Assembly (NCBI GenBank): GCA_964522265.1
Contig: CAZFVS010000063.1
Span: forward strand, 1 to 6,191
DNA: 6,191 bases
From: an uncultured Gammaproteobacteria bacterium
Lineage (GTDB): Bacteria; Patescibacteriota; Microgenomatia; Daviesbacterales; UBA10151
Direction of reading: 5' to 3'
A program made the translations under genes and the position numbers. Every line of letters begins with the position of its first letter. Position 1 is the first letter of the stretch. The notes beneath the pieces were generated by a model. The model was not told the DNA's origin, did not search any database, and saw nothing but the letters and a program-made list of their open reading frames with translations. Below are positions 50 to 5,970 of this stretch, in pieces.

Positions 50-883
50 TCAGATGAATGAAGCAAGAGGCTCCCTAGTACTTCTTCTTTTGGGAGGCTC
101 GAGAGGTGGCAGCTTGTTAATTTCTTCCTCCAGGCCATAAATCATCCTAAGCCTGATGATTTCAGGGTCATCTGTTTCAAAACTGGGGTTTCTTGAAACC
201 ATTGCCAGTCTATTTCTGTCGATTTTATTATACATAAACACCACTCTGTTTTCTGTCAGATTTAATAAATCAAGCGCCCATTTCCTTTTTCCCAATTCAG
301 CAAGCGCTCTTGATTTTGCCACCAGTATTTCAGGAGTATCCATTACCAGCATGACATCTACGGGGATAGTCAACCCGTGCTTATTGTAAAACTCAAGAAA
401 ATAATCTATTTTATCTTCTGCCTCCGCCAATAAATTATCAATATATTCCTTGAGAGCCTCTGTTCCTTTCAGAAAAGCTTCTGTCAATCTAATACTCTTT
501 TCTGTCTCTTCACCTGTCAGCAATATCCGGAGTTTTGCCGGCTGGCTGATGCTTCTTTCATACGCCCTGAGACCCGCTGGGAACAGATGCTCCTTTTTGA
601 CCTGCAAAACTTCTGCTATACTCTTTGCTACCTCCGGAGTTGGAAACCCGCGCATTGTTTCAATATAATTTATTGCCCTGCTTGGTACATGTGCTGCTTC
701 AGCAAGCCCCCTTTGGGTTAATTTATTTGCAACATGATCTCCTTTCCTGGCGATAATCATTGCCCCGTTTGTGCGCCTGTATTCAAAAGTAACTGTTCTT
801 TCCGTAAAATGTTTCGCTCTAAGTTGTGAGAGCTGATCTATTGAGAAGGATGTTTGGGGTTCTAAATATTCTTTTAGTGCCAT
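50..883 (-). CDS. XRE/Cro-C1-type helix-turn-helix DNA-binding protein with an unrecognised ~170-aa C-terminal domain (putative transcriptional regulator)
   Basis: 277-codon ORF with ATG at 883 and TGA at 50-52. Residues ~50-101 (VANKLTQRGLAEAAHVPSRAINYIETMRGFPTPEVAKSIAEVLQVKKEHLF, nt ~581-736) follow the HTH_3/XRE pattern: LTQ-x-LA, V-S-x-x-I-x-x-E, P-x-x-x-x-x-x-IA-x-x-L-x-V, LF. The C-terminal half has no motif I can name (no HExxH, no P-loop). A near-consensus promoter lies immediately upstream. Confidence 0.8.
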   Translation of the reverse strand: MALKEYLEPQTSFSIDQLSQLRAKHFTERTVTFEYRRTNGAMIIARKGDHVANKLTQRGLAEAAHVPSRAINYIETMRGFPTPEVAKSIAEVLQVKKEHLFPAGLRAYERSISQPAKLRILLTGEETEKSIRLTEAFLKGTEALKEYIDNLLAEAEDKIDYFLEFYNKHGLTIPVDVMLVMDTPEILVAKSRALAELGKRKWALDLLNLTENRVVFMYNKIDRNRLAMVSRNPSFETDDPEIIRLRMIYGLEEEINKLPPLEPPKRRSTREPLASFI

Positions 884-889
884 AAAGTT

Positions 890-914
890 AAGGGTAATAT
901 ACCATACAACCCTT
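890..914. promoter_or_regulatory. Inverted repeat AAGGGT-N13-ACCCTT bracketing the -10 box of the HTH-gene promoter (candidate operator)
   Basis: AAGGGT (890-895) and ACCCTT (909-914) are perfect reverse complements. The 13-nt spacer contains the -10 hexamer (896-901). Only 6-bp arms, so this could be chance. Confidence 0.3.
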
Positions 915-923
915 GTTTGTCAA
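896..923 (-). promoter_or_regulatory. Sigma70-type promoter for the 277-aa HTH gene
   Basis: Read on the minus strand: TTGACA (923->918), a 16-nt spacer, then TATATT (901->896). Only 12 nt separate the -10 box from ATG 883, and no Shine-Dalgarno is present. This predicts a 5-7 nt leader, i.e. a leaderless-type mRNA. Confidence 0.55.
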
Positions 924-931
924 CTGCCGTA

Positions 932-960
932 TTGACATTAATTTGGGAAAATGGAATAGT
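932..960 (+). promoter_or_regulatory. Candidate extended -10 promoter for the 781-aa gene
   Basis: TTGACA (932-937), 17-nt spacer, AATAGT (955-960, 4/6 match with A2 and T6 kept), preceded by TGg (952-954) in the extended -10 position. ATG 980 lies 19 nt after the -10 box, with no Shine-Dalgarno. Confidence 0.4.
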
Positions 961-979
961 GGATCTGCAATCATGCTAA

Positions 980-3325
980 ATGGTAGAACGTAAAGCTAAA
1001 CAGGCTGCTGAAGACTTAATAAGAACTCATCAAGATGGTTCAGACCGTAAAAAACATGATAAACAAGCCCAAAACGACATAACTGAGGAGGATCGTCTCC
1101 GCGCTTCACTTGCCCTGGAAGCTCTGTTGCCCCAAAAACCTCAGACTATTAAATCTTTGGATCAGGTACTAGAGATCTATAAAAAAAAGGATGAGTCCAA
1201 TAAAATTGATGCGTTAAAATATGAAATTAAAAGCGATTCTGTCAAGACATTGTATTTGTCAGAAATTTTTACAGGCAACAACACCTCAGATATCCCCTTC
1301 TTAAGAGAGATCATTCAGAGAATTAAAGAGTTTACTCAAGAGTACCAGCCGGATATTGTTGTTGTGTCAGGACTTTTAGAAGGAAACTATAAGTTTAGGG
1401 ATAAGGATAGGCGTTCCACTCTAGTCCTTTCTTTGGACCAACAATTCGCAGCTGCAAATTTAATATTAAAGGAAATGCAGGGGTTAGGATCCGAAATTGT
1501 CTATTCGCTTTCAACAGAAGATAGGGAGATTTGCAGAGATGGGACTATTGAAGCCATGCAGGCACTTCATAATACTGCAAAACCTGTGCTTGATAAGGAT
1601 AAGGGGTTGGTAACCTACTGGCAAATTGATCAGATTAAAAAAAATCCGGCTTGGGATACACACCTAAAATTCCAAACTAATGTAGTTTTTGAATATTGCT
1701 TGCGCTCGGGAAGAAGATTGAGATCAGCAGAAGAAATCGGAAAAATCACAAAAGGCAAAATAATTATGGAAGAGTACCTCATGTTATATGATTTTTTCAA
1801 TAAATTAGCCAAATCAGAAAAGATACCTGAAGAATACAAGGAAGTCTTGGAAATAGACAATATTCCCCTCACAGATAAAAAATTTAGCACTTTTGAGTTA
1901 GTTGATGATATGGATTTAATTGTAAATGCAAATGGCAAAAATTTTACCCAAAAAATTAAACATAACCTTAAATTTGGCACCAAACCGTTAACCCGCAACC
2001 CGACTGATGTAGCTGAAGCGATTATCAAACAACAAAGCTCAGAGGGGATTAAACCACCTAATGCGCTGGTAACTTTAAACCAGCATCAGGCATTGGGTAT
2101 AGGTGATGCGGAAAACACCTGGAGTATATCAGCAGGAAGCTTTTTAAATACCAGTAAGACACTTGATCAAAAAGGCAGTATTGCCTCAGCCGGCCGTGCG
2201 CCTTCATGGAGGAATCTCACTACCAGAAAAATCTTAAGCTACCCAACTGCCACAATGCATGAGTTTACAGATGATGGCAGGCATAGAATAACTTTCTACA
2301 ATAAAAAGCTGCTGGAAAAAGCAGACAGCGCTGATAGAACCACTATTTTAACGATCACTGATTGGCAGACAGGTTCAATGTCGGCAAGGCCTGACTTGCA
2401 GGTAAAACTTTTAGATTTGGCTATCTCTGAGATTCTTACCAGTAGGCCGATGTGGATACTTAGTACCGGAGATATTTTTCATGGACAAAATTATCCAGGA
2501 TTATCTATGGAGAATTTCCGTATTGGGCTCATCAGAATTGAAGACCAGCAAAGATTTGTGGAAAACCTGCTTGAGATGGCTACTGAGCATATATCTGCAG
2601 GAAATTTATCAAACATAGTAGGTGTCAGTATTGTCCCCGGGAATCATGAATGGAACTCCTTTTATACAAAAACAGGGGCAATCTTTAACCGTTCGTTGGT
2701 GAATTTTTTTAGAAACCTTTTAGGCAGGGTTGATCCGACTGCCAGAGGGAAAGTTCGCGCCAGTGAGTTGATAGATACTCCATACGGTGATGTTGTACCG
2801 GCATGGACCTGTCTGGATGAGATAGCAGGTTATGGAGTTTTATCACAACATATGATGCTTGAGAAAGGCGGCAACGGCAGGGGTAAAGTCCCGATATACC
2901 ATGCACAAAAATTTATCGAAGGTGCCGGAGATTTAGCCAGAAAGATTGATGTGTCGTCCTCCGGCCACTGGCATCACAATCAATATGCCGTATTTGGTAA
3001 CAAGCTGCATGTTATAAGCCCTTCTGTCGCCGGATTAACCGGTTACGAACTGACACGGGGTTTGCGGCCAACCCCCGGAGGGATTCTGATTCATTTAGGC
3101 GGAGGTTTACCACCCCAGGTTGAATTTTTAAGCCTGGATACCCTGATAAACCATAAGATTGAGGAGGGGTATTTCTCGGATAAAAATCTCGCCAAAGAGG
3201 GTTTTAGAGATGACAGGCACTTTGATCCCAAAAAACATGGATATTTTCATGAGAAGGGGGCGCTGCAAAAAGCCTTATGGCATATGGCTATGGAGATGAA
3301 TAGGGATATCCACTCGCATCTTTAA
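980..3325 (+). CDS. Tandem calcineurin-like metallophosphoesterase: degenerate N-terminal MPE-like domain plus intact Mre11/SbcD-like C-terminal MPE domain (putative nuclease/phosphodiesterase)
   Basis: 781-codon ORF with ATG at 980 and TAA at 3323-3325. The C-terminal half carries the ordered MPE motifs: ILTITDWQ (D461), STGDIFHG (nt 2468-2482), VPGNHEW (nt 2639-2650), VLSQHMM (H624) and SSGHWHH (nt 2963-2977). The N-terminal half repeats the same pattern with ligands replaced: TLYLSEIFTGN, PDIVVVSGLLEGN, IVYSLSTEDRE and WSISAGSFLN. The first ~85 aa are highly charged. Confidence 0.85.
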   Translation: MVERKAKQAAEDLIRTHQDGSDRKKHDKQAQNDITEEDRLRASLALEALLPQKPQTIKSLDQVLEIYKKKDESNKIDALKYEIKSDSVKTLYLSEIFTGNNTSDIPFLREIIQRIKEFTQEYQPDIVVVSGLLEGNYKFRDKDRRSTLVLSLDQQFAAANLILKEMQGLGSEIVYSLSTEDREICRDGTIEAMQALHNTAKPVLDKDKGLVTYWQIDQIKKNPAWDTHLKFQTNVVFEYCLRSGRRLRSAEEIGKITKGKIIMEEYLMLYDFFNKLAKSEKIPEEYKEVLEIDNIPLTDKKFSTFELVDDMDLIVNANGKNFTQKIKHNLKFGTKPLTRNPTDVAEAIIKQQSSEGIKPPNALVTLNQHQALGIGDAENTWSISAGSFLNTSKTLDQKGSIASAGRAPSWRNLTTRKILSYPTATMHEFTDDGRHRITFYNKKLLEKADSADRTTILTITDWQTGSMSARPDLQVKLLDLAISEILTSRPMWILSTGDIFHGQNYPGLSMENFRIGLIRIEDQQRFVENLLEMATEHISAGNLSNIVGVSIVPGNHEWNSFYTKTGAIFNRSLVNFFRNLLGRVDPTARGKVRASELIDTPYGDVVPAWTCLDEIAGYGVLSQHMMLEKGGNGRGKVPIYHAQKFIEGAGDLARKIDVSSSGHWHHNQYAVFGNKLHVISPSVAGLTGYELTRGLRPTPGGILIHLGGGLPPQVEFLSLDTLINHKIEEGYFSDKNLAKEGFRDDRHFDPKKHGYFHEKGALQKALWHMAMEMNRDIHSHL

Positions 3326-3326
3326 T

Positions 3327-4787
3327 TCACTTGAGAAACTTTACAAACAGTTCCTTGCTGTTTAACGTTGGTACCTCGATGGGTTTTTCTGTTTTCCCTA
3401 TCTTGGGTGCAAATTTGCTCATATCAATGGGTTTGTCCCCTGTGTGCTCTTTGGTGTAGCGCTCCCTTGAGGCTCTGATTGCTTTTTCCCTGTTCTGGGT
3501 TTTAGATTGGGGGAGGGGTAGGGATTGGGCGAAAAAAGGGGTGGAAGTGAGTCCGTTTATGGACATCTTCAAAAGCAACTGATAGTTTCCCAAACTCAAT
3601 AAATCCTCTTCTTTAAACCGCTCCCCAAATTCCCTTGCCATAATCGGGGTATCCTCAGCCCCGATAATAAAGGACATAATAGTACCTGCATTGCCGAAAA
3701 TGGCAGAGCGTACCAACGGGTCAATCTGGGCGGTGTATTGGTTTGCCAGTATCAAATTCAGATGATATTTCCTGGCCTCAGATAGGATTTTGATAAATGA
3801 GGTGGTAGCAAAGTTTTGGAACTCATCAACGTAAAGATAAAAGTCACGTCTTTCGGCTTCAGGCGTGTTAACCCGGTTCATGGCTGCAAGCTGCAGTTTA
3901 GTAATAATCATTGCCCCCAAAAGAGCGCTGTTATCTTCGCCGATTCTTCCCTGGGACAGGTTTAAAATTGCTATTTTACCGCTGTTCATAATATCCTCCA
4001 GGTTAACCGTTGATTTAGGAAAGCCGACAATATTGCGGATGACCTTGGATGATAAAAACTGCCCCACTTTATTCAAAATAGGGGAGATTGATTCTTCCCT
4101 AAGCTTGTCAGGCATTTTTTCGAATTCATTGGTCCAGTAGTTGACTAAAACCGGGTCCTGCAGCTCCGGGACTATTTTCTTCCTGAACTTCTGGTTGGTT
4201 AGGACTTCGGGAACCATCATCAGAGTTGAATTGGGGATCGCAACCAGAGTGAGGATGACATTGCGCAAAATATATTCAAGCCTGGGACCCCATGAATCCC
4301 CGTACAACTTGTAAAAAATAGAAACAATGCCCGAGGCGATCAGCTCTTTTTGGGCGGGGTTTGTCACCTCAAGCGGGTTTAAATGAAAAGGTCTGTCAAT
4401 ATCAGCCGGATTTAAATAAACTATATCGTTAACCCGGTAAGAAGGTATATAATCAAGCAAGACTTCTGACAAGTCACCATGAGGGTCAATTACTGCCAGC
4501 CCCTCATTATTTCTGATATCGTTTATGGCTAAGTTGGCGATTAGCGTAGATTTTCCGGTCCCGGTTTTCCCGATAATATACATATGTTTTCTCCTATCTA
4601 TCTGGTATACCCCAAATATCGAGGATTTATTTTTAAATTCGGTCCTGGCAAAAAAATTGATGCCTCTTTTTTCCTCATCTGATAATTCATAGGCAACCGG
4701 CAGGTTTTCCGGAGGATCGGAGAGAATAGTTTTTGACCATGACAGGTTGGGGATCGTTGAGAGTGTTTTGGAAGGGAAGTGGTACAT
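3327..4787 (-). CDS. FtsK/HerA/TraD(VirD4)-superfamily P-loop ATPase, C-terminal part of a probably longer gene
   Basis: 486-codon ORF with TGA at 3327-3329. Walker A is GKTGTGKST (nt 4545-4571). It is followed by the AVIDPHGDL motif typical of HerA/VirB4/TraD ATPases. Walker B is FYLYVDEFQNF (D321-E322 at nt 3822-3827). Then come ARKYHLNLILANQ and IFGNAGTIMSF, typical of the TraD/TrwB-like C-terminal region. No transmembrane segment is evident. The reading frame stays open for 45 codons upstream of the first ATG (to 4922) with no ATG/GTG/TTG. Confidence 0.9.
   Translation of the reverse strand: MYHFPSKTLSTIPNLSWSKTILSDPPENLPVAYELSDEEKRGINFFARTEFKNKSSIFGVYQIDRRKHMYIIGKTGTGKSTLIANLAINDIRNNEGLAVIDPHGDLSEVLLDYIPSYRVNDIVYLNPADIDRPFHLNPLEVTNPAQKELIASGIVSIFYKLYGDSWGPRLEYILRNVILTLVAIPNSTLMMVPEVLTNQKFRKKIVPELQDPVLVNYWTNEFEKMPDKLREESISPILNKVGQFLSSKVIRNIVGFPKSTVNLEDIMNSGKIAILNLSQGRIGEDNSALLGAMIITKLQLAAMNRVNTPEAERRDFYLYVDEFQNFATTSFIKILSEARKYHLNLILANQYTAQIDPLVRSAIFGNAGTIMSFIIGAEDTPIMAREFGERFKEEDLLSLGNYQLLLKMSINGLTSTPFFAQSLPLPQSKTQNREKAIRASRERYTKEHTGDKPIDMSKFAPKIGKTEKPIEVPTLNSKELFVKFLK
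3509..3529 (+). other. Canonical G-quadruplex motif (GGGGG-A-GGGG-TA-GGG-ATT-GGG) on the plus strand, which is the template strand of the ATPase gene
   Basis: Four G tracts of at least 3 nt with loops of 1, 2 and 3 nt. A fifth GGGG tract lies at 3538-3541. The opposite strand encodes SLPLPQ of the ATPase C-terminal tail. Confidence 0.5.
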
Positions 4788-4846
4788 AGTGGCAATCTCC
4801 AGGACATTTAATATCTGGTTTTTGGACAGGTAATCCGTATTTCTTT

Positions 4847-5581
4847 CTAAAATCGCCCTGAGGAATTTTTTGCGTTGCCAAAAAAAAGGCCTACCAGCGA
4901 CAAACTGTTTCCCGTCACATCGTTACAACTGATGAAGGTCGCAGCGATCAGCTCAATTAAAGTGCTGTTGCGTCCTCTGGTAAGGATTCTGATAGCCACT
5001 TTAAAGCCGGGATACGATACCTTATCCGAGATCTGTTTGGAGTAGGTGCTGATCATGAACGGGTCAGCCGGTGTCAAGGCACCTTCCTCTTTGGCTCCTT
5101 TCTGCTCCATCATGCGTTGGCCTTTTGCCTGCCATTTAGGGCTTGTTGGGACCAGTAAAAACTGGACCAGAGCAACATCGTCTTTACTGAGCCTGGTTAA
5201 CATTCCCACCAGAGAAGAAAGCGGGTCCACATCCTTAAAATCTCTAAAACTCTTCAGAGGGTATAAAAAATTGTGCTGCAGCTTAACCTGTCCTGTTTGG
5301 ATATCTGACTGGTCTGCAGAAAGGTTGGTAAAAGGGTTATCTTTTATCTCAGTGACCAGCGCTTTGGGGTATTGGGATAGAAGCTGACTTTCAATATAGC
5401 TTTGGTAGCCGGGCGGAGCCACTAAATAGAAATGTATTGTTGAATCAAAAGCAGCTATCTCAAGACTGATTGGGGTATCATTTTTCAGGCTTGAGAAGGA
5501 TGCTAAAAACTGCATCATAGCTTCTGGTGTTTCTTCTCCTGTACGTGGTGTTTTGATTTCAAGAGTAACTTTTTGGTCCAT
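4847..5581 (-). CDS. Unknown-function domain protein, likely the N-terminal part of the downstream ATPase gene
   Basis: 244-codon ORF with ATG at 5581 and TAG at 4847-4849. There are no catalytic motifs and no obvious TM helices. It starts MDQKVTLEIKTPRTGEETPEAMMQFLASFSSL. From memory, this style of N-terminus occurs fused to TraD-like ATPases in uncultivated (Patescibacteria/CPR-type) genomes; I have not verified this. Confidence 0.75.
   Translation of the reverse strand: MDQKVTLEIKTPRTGEETPEAMMQFLASFSSLKNDTPISLEIAAFDSTIHFYLVAPPGYQSYIESQLLSQYPKALVTEIKDNPFTNLSADQSDIQTGQVKLQHNFLYPLKSFRDFKDVDPLSSLVGMLTRLSKDDVALVQFLLVPTSPKWQAKGQRMMEQKGAKEEGALTPADPFMISTYSKQISDKVSYPGFKVAIRILTRGRNSTLIELIAATFISCNDVTGNSLSLVGLFFGNAKNSSGRF
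4880..4887 (-). repeat. T8 homopolymer on the coding strand (A8 on plus), giving an in-phase U_UUU_UUU slippery heptamer at the frame junction
   Basis: Zero-frame codons read GGC CTT TTT TTT GGC. The heptamer T TTT TTT (4880-4886) is in X_XXY_YYZ phase. A -1 slip continues TGG CAA CGC AAA AAA TTC..., which is the ATPase frame. A second run (A6 on the coding strand, 4866-4871) also lies in the overlap. Confidence 0.8.
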
Positions 5582-5628: not shown

Positions 5629-5970
5629 TCAGGAGAAAAGTTTTCTCAAAGCTTTTTTTAATTTGATAAATTTATTTTCCTTGGAAGAATAATATGCTTC
5701 ATAATCAAATACCTCGCTCGTAGAAGCTTGATTCCAGGATATGCCGTAGGCTTTGAGGATTGGATCTTTCCCTATTCCATCGCCGTGTATTGTCAGCACC
5801 CTGATGCCATTAACAAATCCAACCACCAGATCATCCTCTGCTTTATACAGATCAGGGTTTAGAATCAGTTCATCAAAATGTTGCCTGCGATAAAACAACG
5901 CATTTGTGAGTCTATTGGGAGTTAGGTGGACAGCAAATCCTATCAACCGATCTTTTTCCAAAATAGCCAT
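5629..5970 (-). CDS. Hypothetical 113-aa protein, first gene of the minus-strand unit
   Basis: ORF with ATG at 5970 and TGA at 5629-5631, same orientation as the two downstream ORFs and 47 nt upstream of the next one. A near-consensus promoter lies directly upstream. I recognise no motif in the sequence (MAILEKDRLIGFAVHL...LTIHGDGIGKDP...). Confidence 0.65.
   Translation of the reverse strand: MAILEKDRLIGFAVHLTPNRLTNALFYRRQHFDELILNPDLYKAEDDLVVGFVNGIRVLTIHGDGIGKDPILKAYGISWNQASTSEVFDYEAYYSSKENKFIKLKKALRKLFS

Follow-up and report, generated by a model that had tools for sequence, protein, structure and literature searches.

Nucleases of the metallophosphoesterase (MPE) type usually work as homodimers, as in Mre11/SbcD, or with a partner subunit, as DP1 does with DP2. 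Inactivated copies of the MPE fold are also known, and serve as scaffolds in polymerase B-subunits and in Vps29. Here we describe a protein that carries a dead and a live MPE domain in a single chain. It is the 781-amino-acid (aa) product of gene P0001 on contig C63, a contig of 6,191 nucleotides (nt) that forms the whole window analysed here and belongs to a Patescibacteria genome of 1.18 Mb (147 contigs, 94% complete). The earlier note on this DNA had proposed that a dead N-terminal MPE domain is fused to an intact one, and this is supported by AlphaFold2 (AF2) models, by fold searches and by substitution of the N-terminal metal ligands throughout the family. We favour, with a probability of roughly 0.55, the reading that the protein is a single-chain tandem of two MPE domains of the DP1/B-subunit structural class, in which the C-domain would be a nuclease or phosphodiesterase acting on nucleic acid and the dead N-domain its partner. 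The open reading frame is clearly a real and conserved gene when judged from its relatives. More than 100 clusters (90% identity) match the protein over at least 90% of its length with identities of 28-82%, and a Candidatus Daviesbacteria genome supplies the closest named homologue (78% identity).

The C-terminal half (C-half) keeps a complete predicted dinuclear metal site, with Gln replacing the His of motif I. The five MPE motifs that had been read there from the sequence (ITDWQ, GDIFH, GNHE, SQHMM and GHWHH) were all confirmed at their places, and their ligands were invariant or nearly so in an alignment of 97 homologues (Table 1). D461 of motif I was present in all 97 sequences, and the place of the motif I His (position 463) was taken by Gln in 95 of them and by His in the other two. 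In motif II, G497 and D498 were invariant and position 501 was His (58/97), Gln (32/97) or Glu (7/97). The ligands were kept likewise in 102 representatives of at most 50% identity, among which H663 was changed to Asp in a few distant members. A Pfam search placed Metallophos (PF00149) on aa 455-574 with 23.3-24.4 bits against a cut-off of 21.5, and positions 129-381 of phrog_284 ('exonuclease') aligned with aa 452-707 (E 5e-5). The four-layer alpha/beta-beta/alpha fold of the MPEs was recovered with the full-length AF2 model, for which 48 of the top 50 VIA-align rows lay on aa 421-779, all of them MPEs (Z 10-20). In the alignments, the C-half is conserved in the manner of an active enzyme.

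The Gln in motif I could be taken as a mark of lost hydrolysis, and the whole protein would then have no catalytic role and serve as a scaffold, as do Vps29 and the polymerase B-subunits of eukaryotes. Inactive MPEs do match the C-half well (Pol delta p50, Z 15.7; Pol epsilon B, Z 13.2; Vps29, Z 13.1), and the Gln is nearly universal in the family. We nevertheless consider a scaffold very unlikely. Apart from this Gln, the metal ligands do not vary in about 100 sequences at 28-50% identity, and neither does the catalytic His of GNHE, unlike in known scaffold MPEs; moreover, Gln is able to ligate metal through its amide oxygen, as it does in motif V of E. coli 5'-nucleotidase.

The N-terminal half (N-half, aa 85-445) gave no profile match in Pfam, PHROGs, NCBIfam, PADLOC or PDB sequences, and no Pfam match even at E 1, so that its fold was recognised through structure only. 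An AF2 model of aa 81-451, built from a 98-row alignment, reached a predicted local distance difference test (pLDDT) score of 93.7 and a predicted template modelling (pTM) score of 0.92, and was compared by VIA-align with 48,161 PDB representatives without a prefilter. The 50 best PDB chains were all MPEs (Z 9.5-17.3), and not members of an unrelated fold, which the earlier note had allowed for in aa 88-395. Foldseek agreed, with 34 matches at E 1e-3 or better, those listed being MPEs. The strings SEIFTGN, SGLLEGN and LSTED, proposed earlier as motifs with substituted metal ligands, are placed after strands beta1, beta2 and beta3 of the model, which is where MPEs have motifs I-III. When homologues were surveyed for these substitutions, as the earlier note had advised, they held across the family. 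Position 95 was Glu in 87/97 and Asp in 6/97 sequences, the place of the motif I His (position 97) was Leu in 89/97, and G99 was invariant. At the place of the bridging Asp all 97 sequences had Gly (G131), with Asp or Asn in a few distant members. The family consensus of motif III is S-N/D-D-D without His: N/D179-D180 is followed by D181 (96/97), and the place of the His holds Asp, Asn or Glu. An intact ligand set was found in the N-half of no family member (102 representatives of at most 50% identity), and the inactivation is therefore old and fixed.

Motif counterparts further along the N-half were assigned by element order, not by superposition, as the secondary-structure elements come in the same order in both halves of the full-length AF2 model. 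On this basis AGSFL (385-389), which had been put forward as the counterpart of GHxH, is probably misassigned: it comes after the strand equivalent to C-half 675-679 and matches the conserved S-x-A-G at 682-685. The order points instead to LNQHQ, since it comes after helix 343-354 and strand 362-365 just as GHWHH comes after helix 640-653 and strand 658-661. An Arg-His pair resembling motif IV appears to be retained as well. Position 327 is Arg in 83/97 sequences and H328 is found in 86/97, and the pair comes after strand 320-327, as Q623-H624 comes after strand 618-623. The N-half thus lacks both metal site 1 and the bridging residue (Asp), and several of its former metal-2 positions would still be polar (N/D179, H328, H/N367).

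Both halves are closest in structure to DP1 of PolD and to the polymerase B-subunits, with Mre11/SbcD second at about 4-6 Z units lower. The best match of the N-half was DP1 (5ihe_A, Z 17.3 over 225 aa at 3.3 Å), followed by human Pol delta p50 (3e0j_A, Z 15.4) and by Mre11/SbcD chains at Z 11-13. For the C-half, DP1 (5ihe_A) scored Z 20.2 over 237 aa (2.9 Å, 19% identity), 4.5 above the next chain; p50 (Z 15.7), MJ0936 (Z 15.6) and Mre11/SbcD (Z 12.8-14.4) were among those that followed. The C-half had been described earlier as having an Mre11/SbcD flavour. This holds for the fold and for the GDxxH and GNHE forms of the motifs, whereas the closest relatives are DP1 and the B-subunits.

Archaeal PolD DP1 is a 3'-5' proofreading exonuclease (PDB 5ihe, 6knb, 8ppt), and the C-half resembles it in having a nuclease-type MPE active site. 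The resemblance is, however, structural only. With the DP1 model of NCBIfam, NF003119, the protein reaches 13 bits where the cut-off is 823, motif I of the tandem protein is D-x-Q, and the gene is sporadic in bacterial hosts of candidate phyla. No OB-fold was recognised before the live MPE domain, where a second MPE domain stands, and the OB-fold was not searched for separately. The DP2 partner (PF03833) was not found in the 94% complete genome, and the control search was positive in three archaea. The eukaryotic B-subunits (Pol delta p50, Pol alpha B, Pol epsilon B) are inactivated MPEs, as is the N-half, which matched p50 with Z 15.4 and 13.9 and Pol epsilon B with Z 12.6. Unlike in the B-subunits, the dead domain here shares its chain with a live, paralogue-like domain, no polymerase partner is known and there is no sequence-level similarity.

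Mre11/SbcD has the same fold as both halves (Z 11-14) and the GDxxH and GNHE motif forms in common with the tandem protein. The best PDB sequence matches were to this group and were non-significant (SbcD, E 0.055-0.08; Thermotoga maritima Mre11, E 0.09). In the tandem protein, unlike in Mre11/SbcD, an intramolecular domain pair, a putative pseudo-dimer, would replace the homodimer, and no Pfam match to the Mre11_DNA_bind or SbcD_C domain was found. The earlier remark that no SbcC/Rad50 partner lies adjacent was borne out within the window by the list of open reading frames and by Pfam. Within two genes of the family member at 26 other loci no Rad50/SbcC gene was seen either; the only SMC_N-type matches there, three in number, stand alongside three ABC_tran/AAA_21 matches and were read as those ABC transporters.

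Phage DP1-like metallophosphatases form the remaining group of relatives (phrog_284; BFVD entries under the label 'DNA polymerase II small subunit' or metallophosphatase, for example the putative metallophosphatase of Bacillus phage BSP38). They match the C-half as models of about 420 aa (E 1e-10, root-mean-square deviation 4-5 Å, 16-19% identity) and have a single MPE domain, none spanning both halves (TMq at most 0.32). Searches of the PDB and of the viral structure library likewise gave no solved or viral structure that spans both halves, and the ESM Atlas returned only generic MPE clusters for the whole protein. A phage origin was rejected, as tblastn of the whole protein found nothing in 50,697 phage records.

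The two halves are likely, but not proven, to have arisen by internal duplication. The earlier proposal of a duplication is thus plausible, and its sequence support is weak. A local hhalign alignment of aa 88-168 with aa 454-536 is in register over beta1 and motif I, helix 1, beta2 and motif II, and an invariant Gln (Q155/Q523). Its P value was 0.017 with cuts of the 97-row alignment and 0.005 with independent 24-row alignments, and its score of 25.4 exceeded all 20 block-shuffled controls narrowly (top control 25.0). Global alignment of the halves by hhalign failed, leaving this weak local alignment over motifs I-II as the usable one. One and the same PDB chain, DP1 5ihe_A, tops the list for both halves. 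The full-length AF2 model (pLDDT 92.1, pTM 0.91) predicts that the two domains are packed rigidly in a defined arrangement, and this is as far as the pTM value goes.

The C-domain would be the catalytic centre of a Mn2+/Mg2+-dependent phosphodiesterase, and its likely target would be nucleic-acid ends or strands, attacked by a DP1/Mre11-like exo- or endonuclease activity. A nucleic-acid substrate is favoured because both structure and profile searches lead first to exonucleases (DP1, phage DP1-like proteins, Mre11/SbcD), and because the catalytic set is complete and the conserved surface is rich in Arg and Lys (K142, R145, R242, R245, R246, R411, R416, R470, R503, K675). The dead N-domain may act as a permanent non-catalytic partner, in place of the second protomer or the partner subunit of related enzymes, and may provide a substrate-binding surface through its basic helical insertion (YCLRSGRRL) and the Arg-rich linker (R411, TxRRR). 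The insertion holds the best-conserved block of the N-half, with F231, Q232, Y239, L241, G244, R245, L247, E252, E265, Y266 and L269 at least 90% conserved. In the linker R411 is found in 96/97 and R416 in 93/97 sequences, and in the hairpin that follows (strands 423-430 and 435-441) D432, R434 and N441 are each found in at least 89/97. The protein probably works alone, as the product of a sporadic accessory gene under a local divergent regulator; a stand-alone gene is indicated because no conserved partner gene was found among the loci.

Several points weigh against this assignment. The nuclease role is proposed from fold and conservation, not from activity or substrate, and the role suggested for the N-half comes from conservation only. 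MPE folds hydrolyse many substrates and likeness of fold does not fix the substrate; the small-molecule phosphodiesterases MJ0936, Rv0805 and SapH also match the C-half well. The Gln in place of His in motif I could alter metal content or activity. Genes for DNA repair or replication are not linked to the family, its neighbours being housekeeping genes or, in one clade, a NUDIX regulator.

A phosphodiesterase acting on small nucleotides is the main rival reading, and one we regard as possible but well short of probable. The live domain would hydrolyse a small nucleotide-type molecule, such as a cyclic or linear oligonucleotide signal, Ap4A or a nucleoside diphosphate derivative, and the dead domain would be ligand-sensing or regulatory. 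MJ0936 (1s3l_A) matches the C-half over all of its 165 residues, Rv0805 and SapH both score Z 12.3, and the polar residues at the former metal-2 positions of the N-half could bind a ligand. DP1, however, is clearly ahead in the lists of both halves, the profile search and the viral fold search matched MPEs of the exonuclease type, and the many conserved Arg and Lys residues suit a polyanionic substrate. In the Saccharibacteria clade, a divergent gene for a winged helix-turn-helix (wHTH)-NUDIX protein directly upstream of the family member (7/26 genome loci and 17/21 metagenome loci) would also fit a small nucleotide, but this neighbour is limited to one related clade and absent from the window. 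The protein in question has about 220 aa, with an N-terminal winged helix (DUF7347) before the NUDIX domain, and may be a ligand-responsive regulator of the gene. An example is found at L004:4105-4773(-), and the gene has the same position in L005, L007, L020, L021, L022 and 17 of the loci L030-L050.

Returning to a nuclease with a dead partner domain, the same polar positions allow a bolder version, which is speculative and in our view rather doubtful. The dead domain would not be inert: its metal-2 remnant (N/D179, H328, H/N367) and basic insertion would bind or gate nucleic acid at the live site. The family would then be a bacterial, stand-alone branch of the DP1/B-subunit class in which a duplicated domain has lost its activity but been kept as an obligatory intramolecular partner.

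The tandem appears to be obligate across the homologues collected. A profile of the N-half, searched against 1.84 billion representatives, retrieved 139 proteins; all 102 with at least 690 aa carry the C-half with its ligands kept, and the remaining matches are shorter. No split or single-domain form was found among the shorter proteins searched. A 369-aa entry with the C-half only, retrieved with a profile of the C-half, was rejected as a genuine single-domain form. Most probably its start was called at a conserved Met inside a longer gene (MHE.TDDGR), because every relative at 59-78% identity has an open frame of 758-841 aa. The N-terminal extensions of relatives measure between about 45 and about 540 aa; the long ones gave no Pfam and no Atlas match. 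In the present protein the tail described earlier as highly charged and about 85 aa long is 41% charged by composition. Its predicted confidence rises from pLDDT of about 50 in aa 1-30 to above 90 from about aa 40, and from about aa 35 it is predicted to be helical and well ordered, with helices and one strand in aa 36-83. The C-terminal tail is well conserved in the family alignment (G730, L737, D745, F748, G754, Q763 and K764 at least 90%) and forms helices 719-724, 734-739 and 761-775 in the full-length model.

Most members are supplied by Patescibacteria (Daviesbacteria, Levybacteria, Saccharibacteria, Peregrinibacteria) and by metagenome-assembled genomes of Melainabacteria. At least 26 loci were found in a pattern-based scan of 185,579 species genomes, which gives a lower bound, and within its own phylum the gene is sporadic, being present in 2 of 301 sampled genomes. 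In a quick tree the Melainabacteria formed one clade beside Peregrinibacteria, Saccharibacteria appeared in several places, and taxa clustered above chance. Loci L003, L008 and L007 lie in bins labelled Gammaproteobacteria or Pristimantibacillus, yet the tree places their members with Patescibacteria; the bins may have been labelled wrongly, or the contigs mis-binned. The genome of the present window also has two ordinary Metallophos genes, at C36:7400-8044(-) and C37:6430-6684(-) in frames of 428 and 205 aa, and the tandem protein is therefore an extra MPE and not the sole one. The family is rare and unnamed. Databases call the protein 'metallophosphoesterase' or 'hypothetical protein', and the literature searches brought up no account of a dead and a live MPE in tandem, or of such DP1-like proteins in bacteria. 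The statement of the earlier note that this is not a described family holds so far, as no Pfam, NCBIfam, PHROG or PADLOC model covers the N-half either.

Table 1. Features of the tandem MPE gene and its upstream region; nt positions refer to the 6,191-nt window.
Feature	Position (nt)	Strand	Basis
XRE-type helix-turn-helix (HTH) protein, 277 aa, divergent, possible local regulator	50..883	-	Pfam HTH_3 (1.5e-6)
Divergent promoter region between HTH gene and MPE gene, 96 nt	884..979	.	Sequence, consensus scan
Whole gene P0001, tandem dead/live MPE, 781 aa	980..3325	+	Open reading frame list and translation, homologues, AF2
N-terminal tail, aa 1-85, 41% charged, helical, variable in family	980..1234	+	Composition, AF2
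N-half, aa ~86-445, MPE fold, dinuclear metal site lost	1235..2314	+	AF2, VIA-align, Foldseek
Degenerate motif I SEIFTGN, aa 94-100	1259..1279	+	Family counts
Degenerate motif II SGLLEGN, aa 130-136	1367..1387	+	Family counts
Degenerate motif III LSTED, aa 177-181	1508..1522	+	Family counts
Helical insertion, aa ~212-288, with best-conserved N-half block FQ..VVFPYCLRSGRRL...EEY.LL	1613..1843	+	AF2 helices 213-288
Retained motif-IV-like Arg-His, K327-H328 in window protein	1955..1966	+	Element order, family counts
Probable motif V counterpart LNQHQ, aa 366-370	2075..2089	+	Element order; family consensus Q-H/N-x-Q-E
Conserved basic linker and beta-hairpin, aa ~405-445: R411, TxR416-RR, then HExTDDGR	2192..2314	+	Conservation, AF2
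C-half, aa ~446-720, intact MPE catalytic domain	2315..3139	+	PF00149, phrog_284, VIA-align, BFVD
Motif I ITDWQ, aa 459-463, D461-x-Q463	2354..2368	+	97-sequence alignment
Motif II GDIFH, aa 497-501, G497 D498	2468..2482	+	97-sequence alignment
Motif III GNHE, aa 554-557	2639..2650	+	Four residues invariant in 97 sequences
Motif IV SQHMM, aa 622-626, H624	2843..2857	+	H624 invariant in 97 sequences
Motif V GHWHH, aa 662-666, H663, H665	2963..2977	+	Both His invariant in 97 sequences
Conserved C-terminal tail, aa ~721-781 (FSD..L..EG...DR.FDP..HG....SALQK)	3140..3322	+	Conservation, AF2

Upstream of the gene, back-to-back -35 hexamers (TGTCAA-N8-TTGACA, 918-937) were found by the scan with 11/12 matches on the minus and 10/12 on the plus strand; these are consensus matches only. 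The two hexamers, which belong to divergent promoter-like sites, make this stretch an inverted repeat and a candidate operator for the XRE-type protein. Downstream lies a HerA/VirD4/TraD-like ATPase gene (3327-4787, minus strand), preceded on the same strand by a 244-aa open reading frame (4847-5581). The two match positions 402-796 and 74-200, respectively, of the 824 positions of phrog_5156. They are in different frames, and on the upstream side of the ATG the frame of the ATPase stays open; this suggests a single gene frameshifted near 4790-4880, by pseudogene formation or assembly error. Among phage proteins, those nearest to the ATPase are uncharacterised and come from large Bacillus phages (phage G gp156 at 27% identity, 0305phi8-36 ORF201, JL, Shanette); some of these carry the annotation of lipid A export protein, probably in error. 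A 113-aa open reading frame (5629-5970, minus strand) has a family match in no library and stands beside the gene nowhere else. No terminal repeats were found in a circularity check of the contig.

These neighbours would allow the gene to be part of a local module of HTH protein, phosphoesterase, HerA/VirD4-type ATPase and small open reading frame, with a mobile-element or anti-phage role and with the ATPase delivering DNA to the nuclease. The four genes do share a single 6.2-kb contig, the ATPase has matches in families of the VirD4/TraD/HerA type (PADLOC mad8/DndH/HerA, phrog_5156), and the distribution of the gene is patchy. A module is nonetheless quite unlikely. The window's HTH, ATPase and small open reading frames stand beside the gene in none of 47 other loci (0/26 genome loci, 0/21 metagenome loci), where it is found among tRNA synthetases, GreA, ABC transporters and biosynthetic genes, and the ATPase gene looks broken. 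Pfam and PADLOC tallies of 93 neighbours gave no conserved operon partner and no recurrent defence neighbour or island, the synteny being at clade level only, and no PADLOC model matches the tandem protein itself.

A conserved arrangement in which a dead DP1-like domain and a live one share a single chain has, as far as we could find, not been described. It offers a compact system for studying what a dead MPE domain adds to a live one, and a bacterial relative of a fold otherwise linked to archaeal and eukaryotic replication. It also offers a name and a domain model for about 140 sequence clusters now called 'hypothetical protein'. If the dead domain does bind or gate the substrate, the family would be an independent natural case of DP1-like nucleases turning into B-subunit-like non-catalytic modules, and a new type of asymmetric single-chain nuclease.

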